A stretch of DNA of 64,000 bases from Escherichia coli (GCF_016903815.1 NZ_CP069973.1); one strand, 5' to 3'. Shown: positions 6,518 through 34,458, numbered from the stretch's first letter. Program-made: numbers and translations. The notes: generated by a model from the letters alone, not told the origin.

Positions 6518-6996
6518 TATCCCGCCCCCATCATACCTGTGAATCTGGTCGCCAGACTGCCGGCCTTACCGATGAGCGACTCCGCCTGTTTACCGATATC
6601 GCCATAAAGCGCGGCCAGTGATTCATCAACGCGGGTGAGCGACAGCGTAAAATCAATTTTCCGGGGTGTGCCGTCTGCAAAGAAAATACTCCCTGTTTCA
6701 CTCACCTTGCTGATGACATACATACCGTAAATCATGCCGGTGCCATCCAGCAACGGCCACGCCCGGCCTTCCTCTGCCATCAGTCTGAGCGTGGTCATCG
6801 TCAGCTTGCCGCCGGTCAGTTCGGGATAAAGCACACCGGCAAGCGTGATGTTTTCCTCGCCCACACCGAGAAACTGAAAGGCATCCCGTTTACCGATACG
6901 GGAATTTGACGGCCAGCGATAATCTGATTCACGCTGCATGGTCTGGTGTGGCAGCGTCTGGCGCATAAAAACAAACATACCTAACGCGAGCATCAT
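6517..6996 (-). CDS. U: Tail protein U
   Basis: 159 aa. P2 gpU position, with a stop/start overlap onto D. Confidence 0.9.
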   Translation of the reverse strand: MMLALGMFVFMRQTLPHQTMQRESDYRWPSNSRIGKRDAFQFLGVGEENITLAGVLYPELTGGKLTMTTLRLMAEEGRAWPLLDGTGMIYGMYVISKVSETGSIFFADGTPRKIDFTLSLTRVDESLAALYGDIGKQAESLIGKAGSLATRFTGMMGAG

Positions 6997-7010
6997 TTTT
7001 CGTCACCTCC

Positions 7011-19946: not shown

Positions 19947-20199
19947 CGTTTTCGTCCTGACAGTGTTTAATCATTTTTACCTGGCTGGCACAACGTGCCA
20001 GCGCGTTCTCAAGCTGCCGGATATCGGCACTTAAATCGCCGTTCGTCTCCGGGTCACTGCCCGGCATCGGGCAAAGGCTCACTTTCGGGCAGGCGTTGGC
20101 GACAATCACTGGCGTCGGTGCAGGCGGGGCGCTGGTGCAACCGGCGCACAGCATCAGGCAGGTCAGCACCATACCAGCGGCGAAAATCTTCGTTTTCAT
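19909..20199 (-). CDS. lysC: o-spanin (Rz1-like lipoprotein) LysC, partly embedded in lysB in another frame
   Basis: 96 aa from 'MKTKIFAAGMVLTCLMLCAGCTSAPPAPTP...' with lipobox LCAG|C and a Pro-rich mature part. Overlaps the lysB 3' half. Confidence 0.85.
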   Translation of the reverse strand: MKTKIFAAGMVLTCLMLCAGCTSAPPAPTPVIVANACPKVSLCPMPGSDPETNGDLSADIRQLENALARCASQVKMIKHCQDENDAQTRQPAQGAD

Positions 20200-20479
20200 T
20201 AAGTAACCTCGTGATGGTTTTCTCGCGCTGTGCTTCACGCTTCGCGGCGTTCTCCAGTTCCTGACGCAGTGCCACCTGCGCCAGCTCGTTTTTGTCTGCC
20301 CTGGTGATGGCAACATGAAGCTGATTTTTCAGCATGGTGATGGTCGTCTGCTGTTCACTGGCGACGTTATTCGCCCTGTCCAGCGAGGCGCGCAGGCTGG
20401 CATTTTTGTGTTTCACCAGAAACAGACCGGTCACCGCCAGCGATAACAACACGACCAGCACAATCATCAGCTTTGACAT
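20054..20479 (-). CDS. lysB: i-spanin (Rz-like) LysB
   Basis: 141 aa. N-terminal TM helix 'LMIVLVVLLSLAVTGLFLV' followed by coiled-coil. Confidence 0.88.
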   Translation of the reverse strand: MSKLMIVLVVLLSLAVTGLFLVKHKNASLRASLDRANNVASEQQTTITMLKNQLHVAITRADKNELAQVALRQELENAAKREAQREKTITRLLNENEDFRRWYGADLPDAVRRLHQRPACTDASDCRQRLPESEPLPDAGQ

Positions 20480-20892
20480 AGTTCCCGCCCCTCAAAACGC
20501 TGACGGCAGGCCGTACGTATCAGCCGGAAGAACACCGATACCACGAGATAAATCAGCGCGGTAAAAATCCACCCGGCAGCGACCAGCGAGATAAACGTCG
20601 CCACCATCACCACCAGAGCCGCCGCCCGTCTGCGCCACGGCACCGGCTGCAAAAACAGCGACGTGACGATCTTCACGGCCAGCGATTCCGGCGGCAGCTC
20701 CCGCCCGTAGCGTTCCAGCACATACTCCGTGGCATACACGCCGACACCACCGGCAACCACACAGATAACCGTCGCCAGAATCGCCCATGCAGCGACAAAA
20801 CTGACGGCCACGCTCTGCGGGTAAATCAGGGACAGTGCCAGCATCAGCGCCAGCGACACGTTCAGCATCAGTGAAAGGGATAATTTCTTCAT
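20467..20892 (-). CDS. lysA: Lysis-timing membrane protein LysA
   Basis: 141 aa. Multi-TM. P2 lysA position. Confidence 0.85.
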   Translation of the reverse strand: MKKLSLSLMLNVSLALMLALSLIYPQSVAVSFVAAWAILATVICVVAGGVGVYATEYVLERYGRELPPESLAVKIVTSLFLQPVPWRRRAAALVVMVATFISLVAAGWIFTALIYLVVSVFFRLIRTACRQRFEGRELCQS

Positions 20893-20906
20893 GGTGTTTA
20901 CTCCGT

Positions 20907-21404
20907 TTAAGCCGGTACGCCGCCAGCGGTACGCCAGACGGTGACCAGTTTTTCCAGTGAATGCTCACGCTGACCGTAACCGGCACCCGGCAGGGACGCC
21001 CAGATATTGCGACAGCGTAAAATGGCGCGCTCAATGCGTCCCGCCCGGATGTCATCCAGTGCACCGCGTTCGCGGATCAACTGAATGGCGAGCCTGTCCT
21101 GTGACAACGGACTGAAATCCGGCAGGGCAAGCTGTTTGCGGTAGTGCGGCCAGAACAGGTAAAGCTGCTGATAGCGACCGGAGGCCGTGGATTTTTCACC
21201 GCGACGGTTAAACACCTTCGCCGGTCGGCCATGCGCGAACGGGTGGTCACTGTAGTCGGTGAAAATTTCCGGCTTCCCGTCCAGTCCGGTGACTATCACG
21301 TCATAGCCCCGGTTTTTCGTCAGCGGATGATTCGCCGTCCCTTCGGACACCGCCAGCATGTCGAGAAAGGCAGCGATATTCTGATGCGTGTTAATTACCG
21401 GCAT
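20907..21404 (-). CDS. K: Endolysin K (lysozyme/transglycosylase family)
   Basis: 165 aa starting 'MPVINTHQNIAAFLDMLAVSEGT...', as in P2 gpK. Confidence 0.92.
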   Translation of the reverse strand: MPVINTHQNIAAFLDMLAVSEGTANHPLTKNRGYDVIVTGLDGKPEIFTDYSDHPFAHGRPAKVFNRRGEKSTASGRYQQLYLFWPHYRKQLALPDFSPLSQDRLAIQLIRERGALDDIRAGRIERAILRCRNIWASLPGAGYGQREHSLEKLVTVWRTAGGVPA

Positions 21405-21685
21405 TACGGTTTCCCCCTGCCCTTAAAGCGGCGCTGAATGGCAATCTCAATCACCTGATAACCGGCGATACCCAGCATGGAGCCGATGCCGCACACCGCA
21501 GGCAGTGACAGGTCAGGAAACTGCACCAGAACAACACCGGCAACCATCGAGACAAAACCACCGAGCAACATGCGCCCGATAAACAGACGCGGGGTGATGG
21601 GTTCACCACCGGCAAGCACCTTGCCGACAACAATCAGCACCCCAATCATGAAAAGCGACAGGACGCTTTTTTCTTCTGCTGTCAT
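21404..21685 (-). CDS. Y: Holin Y
   Basis: 93 aa. Three hydrophobic segments. Immediately upstream of K. Confidence 0.9.
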   Translation of the reverse strand: MTAEEKSVLSLFMIGVLIVVGKVLAGGEPITPRLFIGRMLLGGFVSMVAGVVLVQFPDLSLPAVCGIGSMLGIAGYQVIEIAIQRRFKGRGKP

Positions 21686-21688
21686 GCG

Positions 21689-21892
21689 TTACTCCCACAG
21701 ATTGACAGTTTCAGCCACGGGCGCGGTCTGAACGTCGGGCAGTTCGACGGCGGTGCCGTGTGGCAGCACCGCACCCAGTTCAGCCAGTCCCGGATTTGCG
21801 GCGAGCACGGTCTCAACCACGCCCTCAGTGCGCCCGTAATACCGGACACAAATGGCGTCGAGCGTGTCGCCCTGTAGCGCAAAGGTCTTCAT
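21689..21892 (-). CDS. X: Tail protein X (LysM-like)
   Basis: 67 aa from 'MKTFALQGDTLDAICVRYYGRTEGVVETVLAANPGLAELG...'. Its ATG overlaps the L stop (TGATG). Confidence 0.88.
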   Translation of the reverse strand: MKTFALQGDTLDAICVRYYGRTEGVVETVLAANPGLAELGAVLPHGTAVELPDVQTAPVAETVNLWE

Positions 21893-22401
21893 CAGATTTG
21901 ACTCACGATGCAGCGCGGCTTGTCCTGGATGCGCGCCACTGCCCAGCGCATATCCCGCCACAGTTCATCAATGGTGCTGTCAATGCTGTCGGCCTTCTTG
22001 TCGCCTTTCGCACTGGCATCCACGCCGCGATAACGCTCATAAAGCGACGCGGTCGCCATCGCACACACGGCGCGCTCGTAGTAAAAAACTTTGATGCTTT
22101 CACCGTCGATGTCGTCCGCCGGGACGTCAGCCAGACGCGAAAAACCGGCAGCAATTTTCTGTTCGCGGTACTCGTACAGCTCCGCATTCGTCTCCGCCAT
22201 GCCTGACTTGACGGCCTCACGCAGACGGGCGGGGGCGACAGTCTGCTCAAGGCGCATACGTTCCCGGACGCGCTTCGGGTCGATATCGGGAAAAAAGAAC
22301 GTGTTTTTAATCACCGGCTCGTCGCCTGCCGGTTGCGGGATGACCACCGTACCCTCACCGGACACGGGAGCCTCCTTTCGCGGAATAATCAGCGTCATCA
22401 T
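21892..22401 (-). CDS. L: Head completion protein L
   Basis: 169 aa from 'MMTLIIPRKEAPVSGEG...'. P2 gpL position. Confidence 0.88.
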   Translation of the reverse strand: MMTLIIPRKEAPVSGEGTVVIPQPAGDEPVIKNTFFFPDIDPKRVRERMRLEQTVAPARLREAVKSGMAETNAELYEYREQKIAAGFSRLADVPADDIDGESIKVFYYERAVCAMATASLYERYRGVDASAKGDKKADSIDSTIDELWRDMRWAVARIQDKPRCIVSQI

Positions 22402-22500
22402 GACTACCTCTGAAAAGTCGGGCGGTGGACGCCGGTGCAGTGTCAGGTGATTCACCCTCACTGACCGGCGTGCCGCCCTGGCGCGGGGCGCATTCGGTTG

Positions 22501-23244
22501 TTAACTGGCTTTCTTTTTCGGGCGTCCACGTTTTGCCGGTGTCGCACTCCGGGTCTTACGCGGGGCGCGGGTGGCCGCTTTTGGCTGTGGCTCCGGCTTC
22601 GGTTTCAGCTCCCGCTCCAGTCGTTCAATCTCTTTTTTGACGCCTGCCTGACAGTCGAGCTGTGTCGCACGTTGCAGGTGCGCCAGCGCACCGGCGGCAT
22701 CACCAGCGTCACGCAGAAACAGACCGGTGATTTTGTGCAGCTTTGCGCGCACTTCATCAGGCATGTCTGCCGTGGCGGTCAGTTCAAGGGTGTCCGTCAG
22801 CAGGCGGGTATCCACAGACTCACCGGCAGCGTGAGCGCGCATGGCCGCGAGCGCCACCTCCTCGGTGAACATGTACGGCGGGGTGCGGCGGTGTTTACCC
22901 GGCATGGTCAGACCGTACTTCAGGGCATAACGGGCAATCTCCAGCGCACCGGCAATATCGCCGGTATCCAGACGCCACAGCATGACCGTCATCAGAATGT
23001 CATCCTGTGCACCTTTGCCCTGCTCCAGCACGCCGTTCACCCACGGCAACCAGAACGGCAGCAGTTCGCGCTTTTTCGCGGCCTTAAGCTCTTTTGAATA
23101 AATCGCTTTCAGTGTGCGCTGGTCTGCGGCCAGCTTGACCAGCATCTGCTCATAGACAGTTGCATGTCGCAGCGGGGCGGCTTCCCGCTGCGCGGTCATC
23201 GCTGCCGAGACCCGCATCATGTGGCGCTGTGCGGGACTCGTCAT
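22501..23244 (-). CDS. M: Terminase small (endonuclease) subunit M
   Basis: 247 aa. P2 gpM position. Basic C-terminal tail. Confidence 0.9.
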   Translation of the reverse strand: MTSPAQRHMMRVSAAMTAQREAAPLRHATVYEQMLVKLAADQRTLKAIYSKELKAAKKRELLPFWLPWVNGVLEQGKGAQDDILMTVMLWRLDTGDIAGALEIARYALKYGLTMPGKHRRTPPYMFTEEVALAAMRAHAAGESVDTRLLTDTLELTATADMPDEVRAKLHKITGLFLRDAGDAAGALAHLQRATQLDCQAGVKKEIERLERELKPKPEPQPKAATRAPRKTRSATPAKRGRPKKKAS

Positions 23245-23247
23245 CGG

Positions 23248-24321
23248 TTACGCTCCCGGCTCTGCGGTCGCCTTAGCCGGTGTGGAGAAATCACCGACCT
23301 TAATTTTTTCCACCAGACAACCGGCGGCGTAGTCCTCCACCACGTAATCAATGTTCATTGACTCGTAGTTCTCCACGCGGTCGAGTTTCGGGTTTTCCTC
23401 AATCACGCGGCGATGGCTGTCATCCATGTAGTAGATGGACAGGTTTTCCAGCTTCGTGATGAGCATTGCATCCGCCGGGAAGTACGGGACGCGTACCGCT
23501 GGCAGGTTGCCGATGCGTTTCTGGCTGATGATGACGTCAGCGGCCAGCGTTTCGCTGTTGTCCTGCTCCTTGTTGACGATGGGAAAATACTTGTCCGCCA
23601 GTAGCTGACGTCCCACAATCACCACAAGGTCAGGGTCTTCCTGATACCACGGCTCAATCAGGTTGTTGGTCGCATCCATCACCAGTGCATCAAGGCTGGC
23701 ATAATCACCGCCCTTACCCACGCGGATAACCTCAGAGGTGGTGCGGCCTTCCTCGTCAGTGACCTTGCTCATCACGCGCGCCGGGGCTTCATTGCGGTAT
23801 TTCTGCAGCCAGCCGACCGCCACATCCTGCAGCATCGGATTACTGTTGCGGTCAGAGGTTTCGGCACGCTTCACGCCGTTAAAACCGGCCATGATGAAAT
23901 CAAGGGACTGGCGTTTGATAATGGCGTTACGGACACGGAGCTGGAAATCCTGATAACGCGCCCACAGGTCCAGCGTTTTGTAGCGGATATAAAAATCGAA
24001 GTTAATCTGGTCGCATTCGTACTTGTTTGACGCCAGCTTCGAGAAGTCCTTCGGCTGACGCTCGGTGCCACCGGCGGTATCGGTGGTGCTGGCGATGGAG
24101 CCGGTGACACCGATGCCAATTTTTTCCCCTTTCATTTCGCTGACCGGCACAATGTTGATGCGGGTCAGGAAATCAGAGGACTCCTGCATGGTGTTCATCA
24201 GGGTCTGGGTGACCGAAGGTTCAACGGTGAATTTTTTCGACACATCACCGGCGTCGATGCCGTTCAGTTCGGCAACACGGGACAGGTAGGCATTAAATTT
24301 AAAGCGGGTTTCCTGGCGCAT
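23248..24321 (-). CDS. N: Major capsid protein N
   Basis: 357 aa starting 'MRQETRFKFNAYLSRVAELNGIDAGDVSKKFTVEPSVTQ...', as in P2 gpN. Confidence 0.94.
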   Translation of the reverse strand: MRQETRFKFNAYLSRVAELNGIDAGDVSKKFTVEPSVTQTLMNTMQESSDFLTRINIVPVSEMKGEKIGIGVTGSIASTTDTAGGTERQPKDFSKLASNKYECDQINFDFYIRYKTLDLWARYQDFQLRVRNAIIKRQSLDFIMAGFNGVKRAETSDRNSNPMLQDVAVGWLQKYRNEAPARVMSKVTDEEGRTTSEVIRVGKGGDYASLDALVMDATNNLIEPWYQEDPDLVVIVGRQLLADKYFPIVNKEQDNSETLAADVIISQKRIGNLPAVRVPYFPADAMLITKLENLSIYYMDDSHRRVIEENPKLDRVENYESMNIDYVVEDYAAGCLVEKIKVGDFSTPAKATAEPGA

Positions 24322-24375
24322 AGTTATTCCTGAAATTAAGGGTTAATCGTGAAGGTTTTCCCGGACTGCCCCCGG

Positions 24376-25230
24376 TCAGCAGTTCGTCATCAGGGCGTCA
24401 CCGCCACCGCCGGTGGCCTTGCTGCGGCGCTGCTGGGTCAGACTTTCGGTGTGGTCGAGACTGTTTTTCAGGCGGCTGAATGCCTGACTGGTTTCATCCG
24501 CCCTGTCAGTCACCTCCTGCTTAAGAGCGGAAAAGGCAGTTTCCATCTCAGCGAGGCGCTGCTCAGTGGCGCTCAGTTTTTCCTGCACATGTTCAGCAAC
24601 AGCGGTCACCGCTTCATGCACGTCATTCAGACGGGCGTCATCGCTGGCCTGTTTGCGGCCAAAAATGGATTTCACCTTTTCGGTCAGGGCGGTAAACACG
24701 GTTTCAGGCAGGTCTTCAAATTCCAGCTCAACAGGCGTTGCCACTGAAATCAGGTTTTCAGGGCTTAATTTGAAGCGGTTCAGGGGGTTGTGTTTTGCCG
24801 TGCGGCAGAATTCCAGGTATTCCGTGCCGAGGCTTGCCGGGTCATCGGTGACGGCCAGACCCACCAGATAACATTTGCCGGTGTTGGCAAAGTTCGGCTG
24901 AATTTCCATTGAGGTATAGACCTTCTGCGCGGCCTTGTTCATCGCGATAAGGTCATCGGTCGGGGTGATTTTCGCAAACAGCGCCCATTTGCCTTTCAGC
25001 GCCGAATCATCGTCAATCTTTTCGGCCTTCAGTTCGGCCACATCGCCATAACGTTTAAAAATACCGTCAGGCAGGATGCCGCGCAGATGTTCCAGGTTAA
25101 TGCGGCAACCATAGACACGCGGGTCAAAGGTTTCGGCCATTTCCTGAATATCCTGCGCACTGATGACACGCCCGTCACAGGTGTCACCCTCAACGCCGAT
25201 ACGAAAGAATTTTGAGACTTTTTTTGCCAT
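24376..25230 (-). CDS. O: Capsid scaffolding protein/protease O
   Basis: 284 aa from 'MAKKVSKFFRIGVEGDTCDGRVISAQDIQEMAETFDP...'. P2 gpO. Confidence 0.92.
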   Translation of the reverse strand: MAKKVSKFFRIGVEGDTCDGRVISAQDIQEMAETFDPRVYGCRINLEHLRGILPDGIFKRYGDVAELKAEKIDDDSALKGKWALFAKITPTDDLIAMNKAAQKVYTSMEIQPNFANTGKCYLVGLAVTDDPASLGTEYLEFCRTAKHNPLNRFKLSPENLISVATPVELEFEDLPETVFTALTEKVKSIFGRKQASDDARLNDVHEAVTAVAEHVQEKLSATEQRLAEMETAFSALKQEVTDRADETSQAFSRLKNSLDHTESLTQQRRSKATGGGGDALMTNC

Positions 25231-25403
25231 TGTCAGGAGTCCTGAATAGTGATTAGAGGAGTCACATGTCGGCATCAGTTTCCCGACGATGCGCATCCTC
25301 CGCCATCAGTCCCGGATGGCTTATCACTGACACAACAGCACCTTAGCGAATCGCGGGGCGCGACTCAGTAGCCTTGCCGTGTATTCATCACGGCGAGGTA
25401 TTC

Positions 25404-27176
25404 ATGACCATCACCACAGACACCACTCTTTTACACGACCCGCGTCGTCAGGCGGCGCTGCTGTACTGGCAGGGGTTTTCCGTGCCGCAGATTGCCGCCA
25501 TGTTGCAGATGAAACGCCCGACGGTGCAGAGCTGGAAACAGCGCGACGGCTGGGACAGCGTTGCCCCCATCAGCCGTGTCGAAATGAGTCTGGAAGCGCG
25601 GCTGACCCAGCTCATCATCAAACCGCAGAAAACCGGCGGTGACTTCAAGGAAATTGACCTGCTGGGACGCCAGATTGAACGACTGGCACGGGTCAACCGT
25701 TACAGCCAGACCGGCAACGAGGCAGACCTTAATCCGAACGTCGCTAACCGCAACAAAGGCGGGCGGCGCAAACCGAAAAAGAATTTTTTCAGTGACGAGG
25801 CCATCGAAAAGCTGGAGCAGATTTTCTTTGAGCAGTCTTTCGACTATCAGTTGCACTGGTATCGCGCCGGGCTTGAGCACCGCATCCGCGATATCCTGAA
25901 ATCCCGCCAGATTGGCGCAACGTTTTATTTTTCCCGCGAGGCGCTGCTGCGCGCCCTGAAAACCGGTCATAACCAGATTTTTCTGTCGGCCAGTAAAACG
26001 CAGGCGTATGTGTTCCGCGAATACATCATCGCCTTTGCCCGGCTGGTTGACGTTGACCTGACCGGTGACCCGATTGTCCTGGGCAATAACGGCGCAAAAC
26101 TGATTTTTCTCGGCACCAACTCCAACACCGCACAGAGCCATAACGGCGACCTGTACGTCGACGAGATTTTCTGGATCCCGAATTTTCAGGTACTGCGTAA
26201 GGTGGCATCAGGTATGGCCTCACAGAGTCACCTGCGCTCGACCTATTTCTCCACCCCGTCCACGCTGGCGCACGACGCCTACCCGTTCTGGTCGGGTGAA
26301 CTGTTCAACCGGGGACGCGCCAGCGCCGCCGAACGCGTGGAAATCGACGTCAGTCATAACGCCCTTGCCGGTGGGCTTCTCTGTGCGGACGGCCAGTGGC
26401 GACAGATTGTCACCATTGAGGACGCCCTGAAAGGCGGCTGCACGCTGTTCGACATTGAGCAGCTCAAACGCGAAAACAGCGCCGACGATTTTAAAAACCT
26501 GTTCATGTGTGAATTTGTTGACGACAAGGCATCGGTGTTCCCGTTCGAGGAGCTGCAACGCTGCATGGTCGACACGCTGGAAGAATGGGAAGACTATGCA
26601 CCGTTTGCCGCCAATCCGTTCGGCTCCCGCCCGGTATGGATTGGTTACGACCCGTCACACCGTGGCGACAGCGCCGGATGCGTGGTGCTGGCACCGCCGG
26701 TGGTGGCCGGTGGCAAATTCAGAATACTTGAGCGTCACCAGTGGAAAGGCATGGACTTTGCCACCCAGGCTGAATCCATCCGCAAACTCACCGAAAAATA
26801 CAACGTCGAATACATCGGAATTGATGCCACCGGCCTCGGTGTCGGCGTGTTCCAGCTCGTGCGCTCGTTCTATCCCGCCGCGCGCGACATCCGCTACACG
26901 CCGGAAATGAAAACCGCAATGGTGCTCAAGGCCAAAGACGTTATCCGCCGTGGCTGTCTGGAATATGACGTCAGCGCCACCGACATCACCAGCTCGTTTA
27001 TGGCTATCCGCAAGACCATGACCAGCAGCGGACGCAGTGCCACCTATGAAGCCAGCCGCAGCGAGGAAGCCAGCCACGCCGACCTCGCCTGGGCGACCAT
27101 GCACGCCCTGTTAAATGAGCCACTCACCGCCGGTATCAGCACCCCGCTGACATCCACCATTCTGGAGTTTTACTGA
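25404..27176 (+). CDS. P: Terminase large (ATPase) subunit P
   Basis: 590 aa from 'MTITTDTTLLHDPRRQAALLYWQGFSVPQIA...'. Divergent from O, as in P2. Confidence 0.94.
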   Translation: MTITTDTTLLHDPRRQAALLYWQGFSVPQIAAMLQMKRPTVQSWKQRDGWDSVAPISRVEMSLEARLTQLIIKPQKTGGDFKEIDLLGRQIERLARVNRYSQTGNEADLNPNVANRNKGGRRKPKKNFFSDEAIEKLEQIFFEQSFDYQLHWYRAGLEHRIRDILKSRQIGATFYFSREALLRALKTGHNQIFLSASKTQAYVFREYIIAFARLVDVDLTGDPIVLGNNGAKLIFLGTNSNTAQSHNGDLYVDEIFWIPNFQVLRKVASGMASQSHLRSTYFSTPSTLAHDAYPFWSGELFNRGRASAAERVEIDVSHNALAGGLLCADGQWRQIVTIEDALKGGCTLFDIEQLKRENSADDFKNLFMCEFVDDKASVFPFEELQRCMVDTLEEWEDYAPFAANPFGSRPVWIGYDPSHRGDSAGCVVLAPPVVAGGKFRILERHQWKGMDFATQAESIRKLTEKYNVEYIGIDATGLGVGVFQLVRSFYPAARDIRYTPEMKTAMVLKAKDVIRRGCLEYDVSATDITSSFMAIRKTMTSSGRSATYEASRSEEASHADLAWATMHALLNEPLTAGISTPLTSTILEFY

Positions 27177-28210
27177 TGAGCAAGAAAAAAGGGAAAACAC
27201 CGCAACCTGCGGCAAAAACAATGACCGCCAGCGCCCCGAAAATGGAGGCATTCACCTTTGGTGAGCCGGTGCCGGTACTCGACCGCCGTGACATTCTGGA
27301 TTACGTTGAGTGCATCAGTAACGGCAGATGGTATGAGCCACCGGTCAGCTTTACCGGTCTGGCAAAAAGCCTGCGTGCTGCCGTGCATCACAGCTCACCG
27401 ATTTACGTCAAACGTAATATTCTGGCCTCGACATTTATCCCGCATCCGTGGCTTTCCCAGCAGGATTTCAGCCGCTTTGTGCTGGATTTTCTGGTGTTCG
27501 GTAATGCATTTCTGGAAAAGCGTTACAGCACCACCGGTAAGGTCATCAGACTGGAAATCTCACCGGCAAAATATACCCGCCGTGGCGTGGAGGAGGATGT
27601 TTACTGGTGGGTGCCGTCCTTCAACGAGCCGACAGCCTTCGCGCCCGGTTCCGTGTTTCACCTGCTGGAGCCGGATATTAATCAGGAGCTGTACGGCCTG
27701 CCGGAATATCTCAGCGCCCTTAACTCTGCCTGGCTGAATGAGTCGGCCACGCTGTTCCGCCGCAAGTATTACGAAAACGGCGCTCATGCCGGATACATCA
27801 TGTACGTCACTGATGCCGTGCAGGATCGCAACGATATCGAAATGCTTCGCGAAAACATGGTTAAGTCGAAAGGCCGCAATAACTTTAAAAATCTGTTTCT
27901 CTATGCCCCGCAGGGGAAAGCCGACGGCATTAAAATTATCCCGCTCAGTGAAGTGGCGACGAAGGACGATTTTTTTAATATCAAAAAAGCCAGCGCCGCA
28001 GACCTGCTGGACGCGCACCGCATCCCCTTTCAGTTGATGGGCGGCAAGCCGGAGAACGTCGGGTCGCTGGGTGATATTGAGAAAGTGGCAAAGGTCTTTG
28101 TCCGCAATGAGCTTATCCCGCTACAGGACAGGATCCGCGAGATAAACGGCTGGCTCGGTCAGGAGGTCATCCGCTTTAAAAACTACTCACTGGACACTGA
28201 CAACGACTGA
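27176..28210 (+). CDS. Q: Portal protein Q
   Basis: 344 aa. Start overlaps the P stop. P2 gpQ. Confidence 0.94.
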   Translation: MSKKKGKTPQPAAKTMTASAPKMEAFTFGEPVPVLDRRDILDYVECISNGRWYEPPVSFTGLAKSLRAAVHHSSPIYVKRNILASTFIPHPWLSQQDFSRFVLDFLVFGNAFLEKRYSTTGKVIRLEISPAKYTRRGVEEDVYWWVPSFNEPTAFAPGSVFHLLEPDINQELYGLPEYLSALNSAWLNESATLFRRKYYENGAHAGYIMYVTDAVQDRNDIEMLRENMVKSKGRNNFKNLFLYAPQGKADGIKIIPLSEVATKDDFFNIKKASAADLLDAHRIPFQLMGGKPENVGSLGDIEKVAKVFVRNELIPLQDRIREINGWLGQEVIRFKNYSLDTDND

Positions 28211-28379: not shown

Positions 28380-28398
28380 GTGCTTTCCCCGCCTCGCC
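28380..28398 (-). other. cos site (19-nt cohesive end of P2/186 type)
   Basis: The minus strand reads GGCGAGGCGGGGAAAGCAC, the P2 cohesive-end sequence as I recall it. The flanking 170 nt towards Q also resemble the start of the P2 genome. Confidence 0.8.
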
Positions 28399-28596
28399 CG
28401 CCCGCTTCATGAGACGGTTTTGATGCAGTCGCATTTGTCTTGAAAACCAAGTAACTAGACGGCTATCAGTCATAGACAGGCAGCTTTTTTTTTCATACAT
28501 TTTGTATGCAAAATCATGCACGCCTAATCAAGACGAATCTTCGTTCACAGCCATTATGCATGAATGCGAAAATTACTGTTCGAAAAAGGATAATTT

Positions 28597-30021
28597 ATGG
28601 TTTCGTCAAACGTCAAAATAGCAGCATTTCCAGCAAAAAGATTCTTTGTTGAGATGCTCACCCGAGATATTGAGTTGTCTGACTCAATTCTAGATTTACT
28701 AGATAACTGCCTAGATGGTGTATTAAGAAAAAACAATTTCACTCCAGAGCAAACCTTCGGTAAATCAGACGTTTACAAGGGTTACTATGCTCATATTGAA
28801 TTTGATGAGAATAGTTTCAGAATAACTGATAATTGCGGAGGTATTCCAGCAAAACTTGCGGAAAGCTATGCGTTTAGGTTGGGTAGACCTGCAGAACGTG
28901 AGGCGGATGATCTCCCGACAATTGGTGTATATGGTATCGGAATGAAACGAGCGATTTTCAAAATGGGGACATCTGCTCAGATTTTAAGCAAAACTGAAAA
29001 CGAACAATTTTCAGTTACCATTTCTCCTGAATGGATGGCTGATGATGAAAACTGGTCTTTGGAGTTAGAGCGAAATAATGTTGACTTAAACGAAACAGGC
29101 GTCAGCATCCAAATTAACAATTTAAGGAAAGATATTAAAGCATCCCTATCAAAGGATCGTGGCTTTGAAGAAGTTTTGATTAATATCATAGCAAATCATT
29201 ATAGTTTAATCATTAAAAAAGGGTTTGAGGTTAAAGTAAATGGATGTATTGTTAAGCCAAATAGCACCAATTTAATATTTGATGAAGAAGCCATTAAAGG
29301 CAATACCGACGGCATTGCTCCTTATGTATATAAAAATAATTCAAATGGAGTTTCAATTAAAGTTGCAGTTGGATTTTATCGTAACTTGCCTAGTGAGGAA
29401 GAAGAAGAGAATTTATTATCAGGCCGTTCCACAACAGAAAAAGCTGGTTGGACAATTATATGCAATGATCGTGTAGTCCTACATGCGGATAAAACCAAGC
29501 TTACAGGTTGGGGAGAAGCTGGAGTTCCACAATATCATACTCAATTCATCGGAATTTCTGGTGTTGTTATTTTCACATCATCAAATGCTGAATTACTACC
29601 TATCACTACAACTAAACGAGGTGTTGATGGTAACTCTGAGCTATATCTTTCTACTAAAGATTTTATGCGCGAGGGTTTAAAATTCTTCACGGACTTTACC
29701 AACAAATGGAAAAGTAACGCAGAGGAAAGAAAGCAAATTATTAATACTGCATCCAATATGGTTTCAACAACTGAGGTCGACTTTACTAAATCAATTCCTA
29801 GAGAAAACTGGTCGAACGTTCGACGTTCAATAGGAGGAGAAGTTTTCAAACCGAAGCTACCAATGCCTCGGGATTCGGATCCATTACGTCAGATAAAATT
29901 TAGCCGTAGACATAGTGAAATAAAACTGGTGTCAGAGTTTCTCTTTGATGATGCAACTCAACCACCAACAGAGGTTGGTCAATATTGTTTTGATGAATTT
30001 CTAAAAAAGGCTAAACAATGA
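28597..30021 (+). CDS. GHKL-superfamily (MORC/MutL-like, HATPase_c_3-type) ATPase, cargo gene 1
   Basis: 474 aa. ATG is preceded by AAGGA. Bergerat-fold motifs occur in order: N-box 'ILDLLDNCLDG', G1 'RITDNCGGIP', G2 'IGVYGIGMKRAIFKMG'. The C-terminal ~330 aa is unassigned. AT-rich. Confidence 0.8.
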   Translation: MVSSNVKIAAFPAKRFFVEMLTRDIELSDSILDLLDNCLDGVLRKNNFTPEQTFGKSDVYKGYYAHIEFDENSFRITDNCGGIPAKLAESYAFRLGRPAEREADDLPTIGVYGIGMKRAIFKMGTSAQILSKTENEQFSVTISPEWMADDENWSLELERNNVDLNETGVSIQINNLRKDIKASLSKDRGFEEVLINIIANHYSLIIKKGFEVKVNGCIVKPNSTNLIFDEEAIKGNTDGIAPYVYKNNSNGVSIKVAVGFYRNLPSEEEEENLLSGRSTTEKAGWTIICNDRVVLHADKTKLTGWGEAGVPQYHTQFIGISGVVIFTSSNAELLPITTTKRGVDGNSELYLSTKDFMREGLKFFTDFTNKWKSNAEERKQIINTASNMVSTTEVDFTKSIPRENWSNVRRSIGGEVFKPKLPMPRDSDPLRQIKFSRRHSEIKLVSEFLFDDATQPPTEVGQYCFDEFLKKAKQ

Positions 30022-31010
30022 GTACTGGCGGAAGCATCCCATATCATTTGCGGCAAAACAAAGCCATTGAAAGGAATCTATTTATAGAATCCCTAAGAAG
30101 GTTAAACAATTATACAAACATATCCGAATATGTATATATAGGATTCGGGGGGCCTTTCCTCGAAGATTTCAAACAAATTCATAATTTGTTAAAAGTGACT
30201 AAAATGATATCTATCGAAGGAGATAAAAATGTCCATTGCCGACAACAGTTTAACAAACCATTATCTTGCATAAATTTGGGTGATACCCCAGAAATGAGCG
30301 GAGACTTCATCAATCGCTATAACTTTGACGATAAAACGATCATATGGTTAGATTATGCAACGCCTTCAGACTTAAATGCTCAGTTAAATGAAATAGTTAA
30401 TTTGGTTACAAAGCTAAAACCCAAAGACATTTTTAAGATCACTTTAAATGCAAACCCTGAAGCCTTGGGAAAAAACCCGAGCGAACGAGATCCAAGAGCA
30501 TATAGATTTCAAAAGATAAACGATATTTTGACTCAAGATTTTTTACCACCGAATGCAGTAGTCGAAGATGTCGGATTTAAAAAATACCCTATGCTCCTAG
30601 TTAATGCTATGAGACGCGCAATAGGGCATGGATTAAAAGGTCGAAATGACATAAGAATACATCCATTAACTTCTTTCGTTTATAAAGATGGCCAACAGAT
30701 GGTTACTTTAACAGCTATCGTTCTTGAAAACACTGATACAGAAGAAGCTAAATTTATTGATAATTCCAGAATCAAGAATTGGCCATTTTATGATGGGAAG
30801 TGGAGTAATCCTAAAAATATAAACGTCCCTGCTATGTCTTTAAAAGAAAGGATACATATTGAATCTTTATTACCCGAAGCTTCAGTAGAAAACATCCATG
30901 AAACTCTAGGGTTTTACATTGGCTCCACTCCTTCTGGAGCCAACTCCGATCTAAGTAATTTTATCGAATACTACAAGGTCGTTCCATGGTATTCAAAGAT
31001 TCTTTTTTAA
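30018..31010 (+). CDS. Unknown 330-aa partner protein, translationally coupled to the GHKL ATPase, cargo gene 2
   Basis: ATGA start/stop overlap at 30018-30021. Glycine-rich 'VYIGFGGPF', then 'ISIEGD' and 'IIWLDYATP', loosely Rossmann/methyltransferase-fold-like. I see no nuclease motif. Confidence 0.7.
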   Translation: MSTGGSIPYHLRQNKAIERNLFIESLRRLNNYTNISEYVYIGFGGPFLEDFKQIHNLLKVTKMISIEGDKNVHCRQQFNKPLSCINLGDTPEMSGDFINRYNFDDKTIIWLDYATPSDLNAQLNEIVNLVTKLKPKDIFKITLNANPEALGKNPSERDPRAYRFQKINDILTQDFLPPNAVVEDVGFKKYPMLLVNAMRRAIGHGLKGRNDIRIHPLTSFVYKDGQQMVTLTAIVLENTDTEEAKFIDNSRIKNWPFYDGKWSNPKNINVPAMSLKERIHIESLLPEASVENIHETLGFYIGSTPSGANSDLSNFIEYYKVVPWYSKILF

Positions 31011-32112
31011 CTTTTAAACAGTAATCGTATAAAGGTAATAGCATAGCCTCAGCCACAAGCGGACTAACGCTATTACCTATCTGTCTAAAACTGTGCCACT
31101 TTGTAGGATGAAAACGGAACCAATCAGGAAACCCTTGTAACCTAGCTGCTTCACGAGGAGTTATCACCCTAGCTTGAGTAGGGTGAATTGGCCTAACGGC
31201 CTGATAACTCCCCTTGTCACTTCCTGTACCTGCTCTCAAAGTTGGACAAAAACCGTTAGGATTGAGTCGTTGTGATCTCGAAATCTTATCAGTTTCACCG
31301 AATGAAAGTTGTCTATATCTCCTGAGCACTTCCTCCGAATGAGCTGTACCTAAAAAGCCAGATACCAATCCTTTCTTTAAATTTTGAATGGATTCTGCAT
31401 CACCTACACCATTTGGTATATGTCCCCAAAGTCGCTCATAATAGTAACCATCTTTATCCATTTTTACTGAACGCCAGCCTTGCTCCTCTGTCTGCCACTC
31501 TTTTCTTATAGTTCGCGGTAATCCGTAGAGTGCATCTTTGACAAGAGTCTGCTCTATTATATTTTTAGGAAAAAAATCAGATTCTTTTAACTGATTAATA
31601 AAACCTCTTTTAAAACCCATGAAAAATATTCGTGTCCGTGTCGTAGGTGCTCCATAATTTGAAGCATTAACCCTTATTGGATGTAATAAACAATAGCCAT
31701 CTCTAACTAAAGAAAATGCTTCTTCTCTTACTGGATTATATTTCTCACCCATAATTCCTGGAACATTCTCTGCCAAAAAACAAATTGGAGATAACTCACT
31801 TACCAACCTAAAAAAATGAATATACAATTCATTTCTTGTATCATTGGCATTCCTTTTTCCAATGGTGCTAAATCCTTGGCAAGGTGGACCACCAATAACG
31901 CAATCAATGTCCTTTACAGCACATGCAGACAAAATATCTTTTGCTGTAAGCGAGCAGACATCCCGATGCAAATGTGTTGATTTTGGGAAGTTTAACTCAT
32001 GTGAAAAAATAGCATGTTTATCCAGTTCAACAGCTCCAACCAAGTTGAAACCGGCTCGAGTTGCCCCTAAGCTTAAACCGCCAACTCCAGAGAATAAATC
32101 AACTACATTCAT
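30961..32112 (-). CDS. C5 cytosine-specific DNA methyltransferase, cargo gene 3
   Basis: 383 aa from ATG 32112 (the track ORF begins at a TTG two codons upstream). Motifs I 'DLFSGVGGLS', IV 'GGPPCQGFS', VI 'ENVPG', VIII 'TRTRIFF', X 'QIGNSVSP'. A long variable region lies between VIII and IX. Confidence 0.9.
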   Translation of the reverse strand: MNVVDLFSGVGGLSLGATRAGFNLVGAVELDKHAIFSHELNFPKSTHLHRDVCSLTAKDILSACAVKDIDCVIGGPPCQGFSTIGKRNANDTRNELYIHFFRLVSELSPICFLAENVPGIMGEKYNPVREEAFSLVRDGYCLLHPIRVNASNYGAPTTRTRIFFMGFKRGFINQLKESDFFPKNIIEQTLVKDALYGLPRTIRKEWQTEEQGWRSVKMDKDGYYYERLWGHIPNGVGDAESIQNLKKGLVSGFLGTAHSEEVLRRYRQLSFGETDKISRSQRLNPNGFCPTLRAGTGSDKGSYQAVRPIHPTQARVITPREAARLQGFPDWFRFHPTKWHSFRQIGNSVSPLVAEAMLLPLYDYCLKVKKESLNTMERPCSIR

Positions 32113-32152
32113 ATTCAAATAACCATGCTAAAGATTCAACTAACGATCATGT

Positions 32153-32180
32153 ATTCTATCATGACATCAGTCATTGTCTA
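32153..32180 (-). promoter_or_regulatory. Candidate sigma70 promoter for the C5 methyltransferase, overlapping a small palindrome
   Basis: Minus strand TAGACA-N16-TAGAAT, about 35-40 nt upstream of the ATG. The spacer contains ATGACTGATGTCAT (inverted ATGAC/GTCAT). Pattern match only. Confidence 0.35.
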
Positions 32181-32394
32181 AAGCCATAGTTGCTTTAAAA
32201 GTTGAATCAAACTAACAATCCCTTAATGTGAGAAAGTGATTTTTCGGATGATTAATAGCCACGCTCCAGCCCCCTGAAGTTCCCAATTTGCTGCTGATGG
32301 TCATTTTGAAAAACTCAAAGCAAGTGAACGACAGTTACTCTCTCCAAGCTCCGACCATCCAAACGAACAATGTAATCCTATGCAATTATATCAG

Positions 32395-34458
32395 CTAGCC
32401 ACTTATCTTCTCTTGCCGAGTAAACATTGGCAAATAATGCTTTAATGTGTTTCTAAACACTCTGACGACCTCTGGGTCACTCCATTCGATAACACCGTCA
32501 TCAACCAGATTAAGCACTGCTGCGGCGTGCTCAGAAGGTGTGGGAGCCGGTAACGAAGTATCACCACCAGTGAGCTTTCCACAGTTATTGACAGGACTCC
32601 GAGGCGCGGCGATGCCGCTTTTTAAAGTCAAAGGCTCAACGACCGGAACTTTCGGCACAATGCGCCAGTCCGTCGTTCTGGTGATATGAATATGACGCGC
32701 GCCGAGATGCGGCGCGTAAATGCCGACCACTCTCTCGACTTCTTCCTCGTACTCGTTAACGTCATCCGACGGGCTACGGGCAACCCTGACAGTCTGACAA
32801 TCGCGCGGGACATTTGCCCCACCCTGCGCGCTGATATACAACGCAAAATCACCACTGTCTGCGGCAGCGCGAGCAGCCTCGACGCGTTCGTCAAACTCAT
32901 CAGCAATACTGACGCCGCGAGGCAATTTGCGTAGTTCACGGTAAGCCCCCATTGTCGGCAGTCCAACCGTTTTAAATTGCGGGATGCGCCACGTTGACGC
33001 CCATGCAGTAACAGCCGCGGCAGTATCTTTCAGAGGTCTGCCGGTATCGTTATCGAGCTGACCATCCAGTGCATAGCCGTCGATGTTTTTTGAGATGTAT
33101 TTCGCGATATACCCCGCAGCACCGCCCCGGTTAAGGTGTTTTGCCTGAAAACGGTTTCGCGCGGCTCCTCTTTCGTCGCCATCCTCTTTGAGCGCATAGC
33201 GACGCATGATTTCGATAATCTGGTTACGCTGGCGCGGATTACAAAAAAGCATCATATGCCAGTGCGGCGTTCCGTCGTGGTGTGGCTCGACGACACGCAA
33301 ACCGTAGACCTGTAAATCATTATCCTTGAATGCCGTGCGCATCAGGCTCCAGATACGGCAGAGATAACGCTGCGCATCCTTTGGATTAAATGCCTCATCG
33401 TTCCAGCCGTGATTTAGCTGGACGGTTTTACTTTCGCCTTTTCTGACCTGACGTGTCGGGTGATACTTTGACGGCGCGGTCAGCGTGATAAACATCCCCA
33501 CATCACCCTCTGCTGCGGCGTAACGCTCAATACCGGCAATGGTGTTCATCAGCTCCATCCGGCGAATTTCAGGATTAGAAATACTGCCCATCACCTTACT
33601 GATAAGGTCGATGCGCTCGCCGGTTTCCCTGTTTTCGAGATCACACGATTTAAGAAATTCCAGATTTGCCTGGCGGCGTGCACGCACATCACGAATGGCA
33701 TGTTTACTGGCATAAGGAGAACGGTCTTTATTGACCTCCCCGACAGCAATCAGTAACGCCTCATGCCAGCGCATACGCTGGCCTTTAAGCTGATGAGTCC
33801 ACCACTCATCGTTAAACAGACGGGCAATGGCAGAATATGCCTGCCTCGTGGTCATCTGCCCTTTACGGTATTTTTTCCAGTAGAGAGGGGATATATTGAA
33901 AGCACGTGCAGCGCCAGCAACATGACCATAGAGGTGAGCCTGCGCCTCATCCGTAAACAGCGATTCTTTTTCGCCATGCGCATCCACCCAGGCATCGCTG
34001 AGTTCCTCATACATCATGAAAAGCTGCGATGAGATACGGGCAGCAAACTTTTTCAGCTCCTTGTCATTCATTCCCGGCAGGCGCGCATAGTGGTCACGCT
34101 CTGCCAGAAACAGTAACGACGCGTCGGTGTTCATTTCATGGCGCTGATTCACACGCTCAATGCGCGGCCATAAACGGCGCTGAAAAGTGGATGTGAGGAA
34201 ATAAAACCCGTGCACCGGGCTTTTATTGCGCCGGATGTAGTCATAGCGTGAAGTAAACAGCGAACGCAAAAAGTAAGGCAGGCGGTTAATCGTGGATAAA
34301 ACACCTTGCACCTGACGCATCTCGTCACGTGTAAGGGGTCTTTCGCGCCCGACAGCCTCGCGTGGCGCGCTCCATGCATAAGCACCGGTAAACGTCTTAC
34401 CGGTGCCTGCAGCAAATGCTGACGGAGGGACAAAACGCCCGGAGGCTTTAATGGCCAT
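32395..34458 (-). CDS. A: Rolling-circle replication initiator endonuclease A
   Basis: 687 aa from 'MAIKASGRFVPPSAFAAGTGK...'. Conserved 'HHDGTPHWHMMLF' and 'YIAKYISKN' (HUH / active-Tyr motifs). The C-terminus is shorter and different from P2 A as I recall it. Confidence 0.92.
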   Translation of the reverse strand: MAIKASGRFVPPSAFAAGTGKTFTGAYAWSAPREAVGRERPLTRDEMRQVQGVLSTINRLPYFLRSLFTSRYDYIRRNKSPVHGFYFLTSTFQRRLWPRIERVNQRHEMNTDASLLFLAERDHYARLPGMNDKELKKFAARISSQLFMMYEELSDAWVDAHGEKESLFTDEAQAHLYGHVAGAARAFNISPLYWKKYRKGQMTTRQAYSAIARLFNDEWWTHQLKGQRMRWHEALLIAVGEVNKDRSPYASKHAIRDVRARRQANLEFLKSCDLENRETGERIDLISKVMGSISNPEIRRMELMNTIAGIERYAAAEGDVGMFITLTAPSKYHPTRQVRKGESKTVQLNHGWNDEAFNPKDAQRYLCRIWSLMRTAFKDNDLQVYGLRVVEPHHDGTPHWHMMLFCNPRQRNQIIEIMRRYALKEDGDERGAARNRFQAKHLNRGGAAGYIAKYISKNIDGYALDGQLDNDTGRPLKDTAAAVTAWASTWRIPQFKTVGLPTMGAYRELRKLPRGVSIADEFDERVEAARAAADSGDFALYISAQGGANVPRDCQTVRVARSPSDDVNEYEEEVERVVGIYAPHLGARHIHITRTTDWRIVPKVPVVEPLTLKSGIAAPRSPVNNCGKLTGGDTSLPAPTPSEHAAAVLNLVDDGVIEWSDPEVVRVFRNTLKHYLPMFTRQEKISG

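Follow-up and report, generated by a model that had tools for sequence, protein, structure and literature searches.

The closest described counterparts of the locus reported here are the prokaryotic MORC/paraMORC operons (Iyer 2008), Hma (Payne 2021), and Mza (Gao 2020), in which an ATPase with GHKL and S5 domains adjoins a C5 cytosine methyltransferase, often together with Vsr. Iyer, Abhiman and Aravind (2008) predicted that MORC ATPases arose in bacterial systems resembling restriction-modification (R-M) operons. Hma, a candidate system in PADLOC, consists of the helicase HmaA, the m5C methyltransferase HmaB, and the ATPase HmaC. BREX, MANTIS (Gao_RL), and DISARM are methylation-based defense systems that join an ATPase to a self-marking methyltransferase; in MANTIS, which depends on ATPases, the methyltransferase needs one for loading on DNA. 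PD-lambda-5 (Vassallo 2022) is a validated, compact prophage system of the “RM+Abi” kind, and a GHKL domain occurs in the validated defense protein VcSduA, the authors of which hypothesize that the domain controls the nuclease.

The stretch of DNA analyzed here, called the window, comprises 64,000 nucleotides of an Escherichia coli genome (GCF_016903815.1, NZ_CP069973.1). It contains a cassette of three ORFs, at 28597-30021 (+), 30018-31010 (+), and 30961-32118 (-), all of which a first-pass annotation made from the sequence had claimed and all of which were found in place. The features of the cassette and its surroundings are as follows.

27176-28210, plus strand: P2-type portal gene gpQ, an ORF to which RefSeq gives the label “phage portal protein” at the identical locus
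28380-28398, strand not applicable: cos 19-mer GTGCTTTCCCCGCCTCGCC, read directly from the sequence
28435-32437: variable AT-rich cargo block of about 4.0 kb in the gpQ-gpA hotspot, from GC content and homology breakpoints
28544-28573, plus strand: weak candidate sigma-70 promoter of the ATPase-partner operon from a consensus scan (TTCACA, 18-nt spacer, GAAAAT, TG extension)
28597-30021, plus strand: MORC-like GHKL + S5 ATPase, 474 aa
30018-31010, plus strand: PF20553 (Methyltransf_35) partner with a class-I SAM-methyltransferase fold, 330 aa
30961-32112, minus strand: C5 cytosine DNA methyltransferase (Dcm), 383 aa, from ATG 32112 (the PGAP/RefSeq start)
32153-32180, minus strand: candidate Dcm promoter from a consensus scan (TAGACA, 16-nt spacer, TAGAAT, TG extension; 10/12 consensus positions)
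32395-34458, minus strand: replication gene A, an ORF truncated at its 3′ end, 687 aa, the right flank of the hotspot

Position of the cassette in the prophage

The cassette lies in a block whose limits were set by homology breakpoints, at 28434 and 32438, against the P2-like prophages L083 and L098. The portal gene gpQ is the left conserved flank of the hotspot, and backbone homology with other P2-like prophages reaches 28434 on that side and resumes at 32438 on the right. The block had been placed between cos/gpQ and gpA; the position stands, but the right-hand junction falls inside gene A, not outside it. PGAP treats gene A as a pseudogene “missing C-terminus,” with 687 aa versus 755 to 768 aa in other prophages. 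The proposed cos site at 28380-28398 was borne out, its reverse complement agreeing with the cos region printed for P4 clones by Rousset et al. Variable genes thus stand between Q/cos and A with both flanks identified, as in the cos-proximal hotspot of P2, and the gpQ-gpA slot, cited by the first-pass annotation as a documented defense hotspot, is indeed an experimentally supported one (Rousset et al.).

The AT richness of the block had been illustrated by two counts, 18 G+C in 29221-29280 and 32 in 8401-8460, both of which are exact. Over longer distances, the cassette has 37.1% G+C, compared with 57.0% in 20000-28200 and 49.7% across the window; the fraction runs from 0.34 to 0.42 along the block versus 0.52 to 0.58 in the flanks. 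The two promoter candidates come from a scan that found 17 promoter-like sites, against 12.2 ± 3.3 expected in shuffled sequence, a number that does not amount to clear enrichment.

Proteins of the cassette and their relation to named systems

The GHKL motifs reported earlier for gene 1 (ILDLLDNCLDG, RITDNCGGIP, and IGVYGIGMKRAIFKMG) are present in its translation. The hallmarks of the superfamily stand in order, with N-box LDLLDNCLDG, G1 DNCGGI, and G2 GVYGIGMKR, all retained by 93% or more of 69 orthologues, and the Pfam model HATPase_c_3 matches with 34.4 bits (cutoff, 25). Directly after the GHKL domain comes an S5-fold domain, of the kind that supplies a conserved basic residue to the ATP site; this is the arrangement of MORC/paraMORC-type proteins. 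The predicted structure is nearest to those of the eukaryotic proteins MORC3, MORC2, and SMCHD1, to which identity is just 15 to 18%. Unlike eukaryotic MORCs, the window protein has no CW zinc finger and no coiled coil, and its C-terminal 130 aa or so are unrelated to theirs and match no assigned family. We call the ATPase MORC-like rather than MORC because MORC3, although ranked first in a profile search against PDB sequences, matched with a weak E value of 0.29.

The ATPase gene ends in an ATGA stop/start overlap with gene 2, seen as ACAATGAGTA at 30015-30024, through which the partner is predicted to be translationally coupled to the ATPase. The partner had been regarded as unassignable, a view that must be abandoned: it matches Pfam PF20553 over its full length (E = 4.6e-85; 286.1 bits, cutoff 27; residues 3-328 of 330). 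Its fold was confidently assigned to the class-I SAM-dependent methyltransferases, which are marked by a Rossmann-like fold, a motif I rich in Gly, an acidic residue ending strand 2, and an acidic/aromatic pair in motif IV, and none of the hallmarks of an active methyltransferase is missing from it. With the partner counted by its modeled fold, the cassette holds two methyltransferases plus an ATPase. The top structural neighbors of the partner are methyltransferases of nucleic acid bases (N2-G, m5C), not O-methyltransferases, and an RlmJ-like protein of the N6-A type ranks 21st; the name “putative O-methyltransferase” given to PF20553 by Pfam and PGAP should be taken as provisional. The family falls into some 2,000 clusters when grouped at 50% identity, and no publication mentioning it was found in the literature searched. 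At least 93% of 69 to 78 orthologues, drawn from many phyla, retain the ATP- and SAM-binding motifs, and the partner is the fastest evolving of the three proteins (mean pairwise identity of 0.35 versus 0.44 to 0.45).

Gene 3 is a complete C5 methyltransferase, as proposed. Its ORF extends beyond the annotated start to TTG 32118, which would give 385 aa, and it shares the 50 bp at its 3′ end with the convergent partner gene. The translation contains FSGVGG, GGPPCQGFS, ENV, TRTRIFF, and GNSV, with motifs I, IV, VI, VIII, and X all represented, and it matches Pfam DNA_methylase (PF00145; E = 1.7e-59), TIGR00675 (E = 2.5e-51; 175 bits, cutoff 100.65), and PDB entry 3g7u (E = 3.8e-155), whose protein we take to be the methyltransferase of prophage CP-933R.

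The earlier report of no recognizable nuclease agrees with searches of Pfam, NCBIfam, and PADLOC, which returned none and, more broadly, no effector domain of known toxic or nuclease type. Vsr is not present in this window, and no nuclease is a conserved neighbor across 80 homologous loci. A type II R-M system was rejected, the plus-strand proteins having no nuclease domain and the block no further ORF with a family match. The cassette resembles orphan or type II Dcm-Vsr modules in its Dcm with a 3g7u match and in the frequency of Vsr beside its homologues; it differs in having no restriction endonuclease and in the ATPase-partner pair that accompanies Dcm.

With paraMORC operons, Hma, and Mza the cassette shares both the juxtaposition of a GHKL + S5 ATPase with a C5 methyltransferase and a patchy, horizontally mobile occurrence across phyla. 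Hma itself was rejected: the block has no helicase gene, and the ATPase has no PADLOC match. The combination of a self-marking methyltransferase with an ATPase recalls BREX, MANTIS, and DISARM, but the window has none of PglZ, BrxC, DrmA, DrmB, DrmC, or MtsD, the ATPase is of the GHKL type rather than AAA+ or helicase, the mark is presumably on C5 of cytosine, and there is no nuclease. DISARM was likewise set aside, since the DrmA helicase, DrmB (DUF1998), and DrmC (PLD) are absent from the window and occur near the pair only in loci L085 and L058. Like PD-lambda-5, which pairs a methyltransferase with a nonclassical effector, the cassette is prophage cargo; unlike in that system, the window ATPase does not have the C-terminal domain of PD-lambda-5_A, and there is no match to the PD-lambda-5 models. 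Neither plus-strand protein matches PADLOC-DB v2 (for the ATPase, at E ≤ 0.1), in agreement with the first-pass annotation, which could place the cassette in no named defense system.

Distribution and gene neighborhoods

Of 5426 complete E. coli genomes, 221 contain versions of the three-gene module, many O157:H7 and O111 strains among them; in O157:H7 genomes the same three genes reside in a lambdoid prophage. The module is also carried by the Pf phage PfAC20, diverged alleles occupy the same slot in 21 P2-like viral contigs, and the pair was found in 17 other viral contigs, 16 of them with Dcm. Among 50,697 deposited phage genomes, one has the module. The module is conserved, mobile, and widespread in bacteria. 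The exact protein trio appears in Table S5A of Rousset et al., and the cassette proteins are absent from the tables of cloned systems in that paper. No functional study of the module, including phage protection, toxicity, or methylome, was found in the literature searched.

Gene neighborhoods had been proposed as a test of a methylation-linked module, which came through it. In 79 of 80 genome loci from many phyla, the partner gene immediately follows the ATPase gene in the same orientation (with a 4-nt start/stop overlap in 47 of the 79). Of the 60 loci whose flanks were complete, 50 have Dcm within 3 kb of the pair and the other 10 show no nearby Dcm by the ORF filter, although one, L043, has a phmmer Dcm match; several cyanobacterial pairs stand between housekeeping genes. 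Pairwise distances of the ATPase correlate with those of the partner at r = 0.76, compared with 0.23 for the ATPase and Dcm. On these sequence comparisons, ATPase and partner appear as one tightly covarying unit, and Dcm as a loosely coupled, swappable element that varies in family, position, and strand. Because Dcm distances barely track the pair and the Dcms near it belong to several subfamilies, the pair cannot read one fixed Dcm target sequence.

Other neighbors vary. Vsr stands beside the module in 28 loci, about a third, and HhH-GPD glycosylases flank 4 more; R-M methyltransferases, HNH, NERD-UvrD, DRT, and integrase genes also flank homologues. In two loci only, on a Microvirga plasmid and in a Myxococcota MAG, the pair lies inside a class-1 DISARM operon, directly upstream of drmA, accompanied by an N6-type MmeI-like methyltransferase in place of Dcm. 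In nine loci, a paralogous GHKL protein with a C-terminal domain common to PD-lambda-5_A adjoins the same Dcm.

Candidate functions of the module

We tentatively favor, at somewhat under an even chance, the reading that the cassette is a nuclease-free, methylation-linked defense module carried as cargo of the P2-like cos-proximal hotspot. Its logic would be closer to that of BREX than to classical restriction. Dcm would put 5-methylcytosine on resident DNA as a self-mark, and ATPase and partner would bind each other in one ATP- and SAM-dependent complex that engages DNA without the mark. With ATP, the ATPase may dimerize into a DNA clamp, as MORC and MutL proteins do, and the methyltransferase-fold subunit may modify the clamped nucleic acid or act as a SAM-dependent reader; the outcome would be a block to replication or expression of the invader, with its DNA left uncut. 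The hotspot slot, the embedding in DISARM, the prophage cargo slots, the R-M and similar genes flanking homologues, and the Abi-type paralogue near the same Dcm speak for defense, as do the precedents of VcSduA and MANTIS; the conserved ATP- and SAM-binding motifs, the unity of the pair, and its frequent linkage to Dcm and Vsr also favor this reading. Against it count the absence of any known toxic or nuclease effector domain and the weak tracking between Dcm and the pair. Pairs without Dcm sit uneasily with an attack by the pair on unmarked self DNA, and the intact core of the partner suits modification no less than effector action.

If the module is defensive, it would be a new methylation-based system whose effector arm combines a MORC-like ATPase with a methyltransferase-fold protein and dispenses with a nuclease. 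The 2008 prediction on MORC origin would become directly testable in E. coli, and the module could account for DNA modifications left unassigned in the methylomes of pathogens. We hold it quite improbable, as a broader idea, that a bacterial MORC-type clamp, its SAM-dependent partner, and Dcm form a nuclease-free epigenetic immunity in which DNA without the 5mC mark is topologically trapped by the clamp and then modified or silenced rather than cut, a counterpart and possibly an ancestor of the eukaryotic silencing of invading elements by MORC proteins and DNA methylation.

It is rather unlikely that the module serves modification alone. The ATPase would then serve the partner, on this view a DNA methyltransferase, as a loader or clamp powered by ATP, and the cassette, Dcm included, would lay down two DNA marks and restrict nothing; the benefit might be shielding of the mobile element from restriction in new hosts or supply of a self-mark to a system such as DISARM. 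The intact SAM-methyltransferase core, its likeness to nucleic acid base methyltransferases, and the lack of a nuclease or toxin domain all fit, as does the precedent of MtsABC in MANTIS for ATPase-dependent loading of a defense methyltransferase. The module is invariably located on mobile elements or close to them, orphan pairs are tolerated without Dcm, and modification and helicase genes surround the pair in both DISARM operons. However, a generally useful antirestriction device would be expected more commonly than once among the deposited phage genomes, the slots are typical of defense cargo expressed in lysogens, the paralogous GHKL protein bears an Abi-type domain, and a simple modification enzyme would not usually evolve as fast as the partner does. 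Should this alternative hold, the module would be the second case after MANTIS of ATPase-dependent DNA methylation, here with a GHKL clamp.

That the pair is a self-contained defense or abortive infection system, with a trigger unrelated to the Dcm mark and with Dcm, or DISARM in two loci, as complementary co-residents in the way that one defense system can be nested within another, we judge unlikely. Tight covariation within the pair, the interchangeability of Dcm, the pairs standing alone in cyanobacteria and at other Dcm-less loci, and the replacement of Dcm by an N6-type enzyme inside DISARM argue for such autonomy. Against it, proximity to Dcm in 83% of loci from very distant phyla is far above what co-residence in islands would give, and the genes often form one co-directional operon, (Vsr-)Dcm-ATPase-partner(-Vsr), with no other neighbor conserved.

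MutL stimulates Vsr in E. coli, and a MutL-like, nonimmune accessory to Dcm/Vsr very-short-patch repair that limits 5mC-driven mutation would suit the Vsr or HhH-GPD genes at about a third of loci, but it is very improbable: Vsr is absent from most loci, this window included, the protein constantly paired with the ATPase has a methyltransferase fold and is no repair nuclease, the window ATPase is clearly nearer to MORC proteins than to MutL, and both the hotspot and the DISARM settings suggest conflict systems. Under the favored defense reading, we propose that Vsr and HhH-GPD genes are frequent at homologous loci because deamination of 5mC creates T:G mismatches, which their products repair.

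Anatomy of the cassette and its place in the prophage

The cargo carried beside cos in this P2-like prophage is a cassette of three genes, and the open reading frames claimed for it in the first-pass annotation, with their GHKL and C5-methyltransferase motifs, were all found in place:

28597-30021, plus strand: gene 1, the ATPase, an open reading frame of 474 aa
30018-31010, plus strand: gene 2, the partner, an open reading frame of 330 aa
30961-32118, minus strand: gene 3, Dcm, 385 aa from a TTG start (the RefSeq start is the ATG at 32112)

Genes 1 and 2 share an ATGA overlap, and genes 2 and 3 converge, their 3' ends overlapping by 50 bp (30961-31010) with no terminator in between; in the O157:H7 allele (L082) they share 33 bp. 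Control by antisense action or transcriptional interference, as seen with some restriction-modification (R-M) systems, would be possible with such an arrangement. The G+C content of the cassette is 37.1%, versus 57.0% in the adjoining structural genes, which bears out the AT-richness first noted from local counts (18 G+C in 29221-29280 and 32 in 8401-8460, both exact).

Positions 28380-28398 carry a 19-mer that agrees with the P2/P4 cos region, and the block is flanked by the portal gene on one side and replication gene A on the other. The position first described for it agrees with these flanking genes and with an alignment to other P2-like prophages, which sets the boundaries of the variable DNA at 28434/28435 and 32437/32438. 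In the definition of Rousset et al., the site is the cos-proximal hotspot of P2, where P2 itself has old and tin. Replication gene A (32395-34458, minus strand) is truncated at its 3' end, encoding 687 aa versus 755-768 aa in other P2-like prophages; the junction lies near 32438, the final ~15 residues are supplied by the AT-rich insert, and PGAP calls the gene a pseudogene. Exchange of the cargo encroached on gene A, and the prophage may therefore be replication defective.

The three proteins

Gene 1 encodes a GHKL ATPase (Pfam HATPase_c_3) that combines the GHKL and S5 transducer domains of MORC-like proteins, followed by ~130 residues that match no assigned family. Across 69 orthologues, all of the ATP-site motifs and a TTKRG loop in the S5 domain are kept in 93% or more. 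When the PDB was searched by sequence and by profile, MORC3 appeared only as a weak match (E = 0.29).

The partner, first described as unassignable, matches Pfam PF20553, Methyltransf_35, over its full length (E = 4.6e-85), and its confidently predicted structure (pLDDT 91.7) identifies it as a putative class-I SAM methyltransferase. The nearest solved structural neighbors include RsmD-like, Trm1, and RlmI-like (m5C-type) enzymes, with an RlmJ-like protein lower in the list; those listed are nucleic acid base methyltransferases. Conservation extends to a Gly-rich motif I, to the acidic residue that follows strand 2, and to a motif IV of the form W-x-D-aromatic. The literature on PF20553 and Methyltransf_35 yielded no support for calling the protein an “O-methyltransferase,” as Pfam and PGAP do, and PDB sequence and profile searches found no significant relative. 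At 50% identity the family falls into 1,997 clusters, of which the best 150 representatives are all stand-alone proteins of ~330 aa, none fused to other domains.

Gene 3 encodes a complete C5 DNA methyltransferase whose closest solved relative is PDB 3g7u (E = 3.8e-155). Its target sequence could not be inferred from the recognition region, where the sole match was 3g7u, a protein without known specificity.

Pfam, NCBIfam, and PADLOC detected no nuclease domain anywhere in the block. The PADLOC search that had been proposed at the outset was run with PADLOC-DB v2: Dcm matched the generic MTase_II, DruM, and DrmMII models, and neither the ATPase nor the partner had a match. These results support the original view of a Dcm-linked, nuclease-free module of MORC type lying outside the named systems. 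NCBIfam offered nothing useful for the ATPase or the partner, PHROGs places both in families of unknown function, and the cassette proteins are absent from the tables of cloned systems of Rousset et al. Two Vibrio cholerae candidates were rejected: WonAB is an ABC ATPase with a PD-(D/E)xK nuclease, and VcSduA is a GHKL-Shedu fusion. We found no experimental work on the module, and literature on PF20553, Methyltransf_35, the WP accessions, bacterial MORC, and GHKL with DISARM held nothing about it.

Conservation of the module and its possible function

Scanning one genome per species yielded a sample of 80 homologous loci, spanning Proteobacteria, Cyanobacteria, Acidobacteria, Verrucomicrobia, Chloroflexi, Planctomycetes, Bacillota, and others. 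In 79 of these loci the PF20553 gene directly follows the ATPase gene on the same strand; the remaining locus is cut by a contig end. The two genes overlap by 4 nt in 47. When all neighbors were clustered, just four families proved to be conserved: the ATPase, the partner, Dcm, and a ~140-aa protein, unmistakably Vsr by sequence, in 28 loci. Other flanking genes were mutually unrelated and included R-M methyltransferases, HNH, NERD-UvrD, DRT, and integrases. Iyer et al. (2008) had described MORC and paraMORC ATPases beside Dcm, Vsr, helicases, and nucleases, and we saw no partner with a methyltransferase fold mentioned in that account. The module is of a kind foreseen in 2008, GHKL ATPases in R-M-like operons, with an architecture that is new and widespread.

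Of the 60 loci whose flanks reach 3 kb or more on each side, 50 carry a Dcm gene within 3 kb, placed upstream on the same strand (21), downstream and convergent (20), or downstream on the same strand (8). In four loci beyond those with Vsr, an HhH-GPD glycosylase adjoins the module, and we read the glycosylase as a functional stand-in for Vsr. The company of such repair genes argues that Dcm really methylates the resident genome. HhH-GPD genes (~220-360 aa), replacing Vsr or additional to it, were seen beside the module in L015, L018, L037, L040, and L051; they match a PADLOC “type II nicking endonuclease” model and probably repair T:G mismatches arising from 5mC.

Pairwise distances of the ATPase and the partner are correlated (r = 0.76), whereas those of Dcm correlate with either at only ~0.2. 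Together with the synteny, these values indicate that the ATPase and partner form one unit and that Dcm is a swappable companion. A single shared Dcm target, read from conserved residues of the recognition region, was dropped as an idea, the distance analysis having shown the Dcms to be heterogeneous. In L031 and L074 the ATPase and partner genes are fragmented beside an intact Dcm, a hint of “R-like” loss that is given little weight because both are metagenome assemblies.

The pair also occurs inside class 1 DISARM operons, immediately upstream of drmA and with an MmeI-like N6 methyltransferase in place of any Dcm:

L085:1-12987, Microvirga terrae plasmid: drmD, MmeI-like methyltransferase, ATPase, partner, drmA, DUF1998, drmC
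L058:239-12323, Myxococcota metagenome-assembled genome: MmeI-like fragment, SNF2 helicase, ATPase, partner, DrmA, DrmB, PLD

A second GHKL protein of 546-610 aa adjoins the same Dcm in nine loci, the five below and four more:

L006:10243-11961, GHKL paralogue
L013:1021-2853, GHKL paralogue
L011:9067-10830, GHKL paralogue
L022:5640-7397, GHKL paralogue
L078:10696-12453, GHKL paralogue

The C-terminal ~200 residues of this paralogue match the C-terminal region of PD-lambda-5_A, from the validated prophage “RM+Abi” system PD-lambda-5, and with its Dcm the paralogue seems to make up a sister system linked to Dcm. PD-lambda-5 itself required deletion of mrr. Several cyanobacteria carry the ATPase-partner pair by itself, flanked by ndhF-like and ndhD-like genes, and have no Dcm within 8 kb of it. 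In three Nostocales loci (L020, L023, and L025, at ~6400-9000 in each) it lies between NADH dehydrogenase subunit genes with a thioredoxin gene adjacent, a pattern suggestive of one old insertion passed on by vertical inheritance.

We tentatively favor the hypothesis that this is a nuclease-free, methylation-linked module for discriminating self from nonself, as supported by its association with Dcm and Vsr, its occurrence in the hotspot and in DISARM operons, and the paralogue with its Abi domain. The mechanistic steps beyond anatomy and synteny are ones that we infer: Dcm would mark resident DNA, and the ATPase-partner complex would be an ATP- and SAM-dependent arm engaging unmarked DNA, in which the MORC-like ATPase might act as an ATP-closed clamp and the PF20553 subunit might modify or read the clamped DNA. 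Precedents exist in validated defense proteins with GHKL ATPase domains and in MANTIS, an ATPase-dependent, methylation-based defense.

The self/nonself hypothesis is weakened because a known effector domain is absent. A module for modification only, in which a GHKL clamp loads a second DNA methyltransferase, would be consistent with the intact methyltransferase motifs and with the MANTIS precedent, and we regard it as somewhat unlikely. The existence of orphan pairs and the loose coupling to any one Dcm lineage also count against the self/nonself hypothesis; that the two genes form an autonomous system, with Dcm a mere frequent neighbor, is a doubtful alternative to which we give a little less credence. 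A MutL-like repair accessory is highly improbable.

Carriage by prophages and phages

The identical cassette is present in 45 complete E. coli genomes. A divergent allele, with 67% nucleotide identity over the ATPase and partner genes, occupies the same slot of another P2-like prophage, and a version at ~49% protein identity lies between replication and nin-type genes in a lambdoid prophage of O157:H7 and O111; all versions together occur in 221 of 5,426 complete E. coli genomes. In E. coli O157:H7 strain 611, the three-gene module of the lambdoid prophage spans L082:6200-9699, and its Dcm appears to correspond to the crystallized protein 3g7u.

IMG/VR contains 21 P2-like contigs whose gpQ-gpA slot is occupied by a diverged allele; a further 17 viral contigs carry the pair, 16 of them with Dcm. 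Deposited phages contained no near-identical DNA, and the module occurs in only 1 of 50,697 deposited phage genomes. In PfAC20, a filamentous Pf phage of Pseudomonas, the accessory genes (L084:280-3711) are ordered ATPase, partner, Dcm, the partner being distant (26.6% identity), and farther along, the same genome has another gene annotated as a DNA cytosine methyltransferase.
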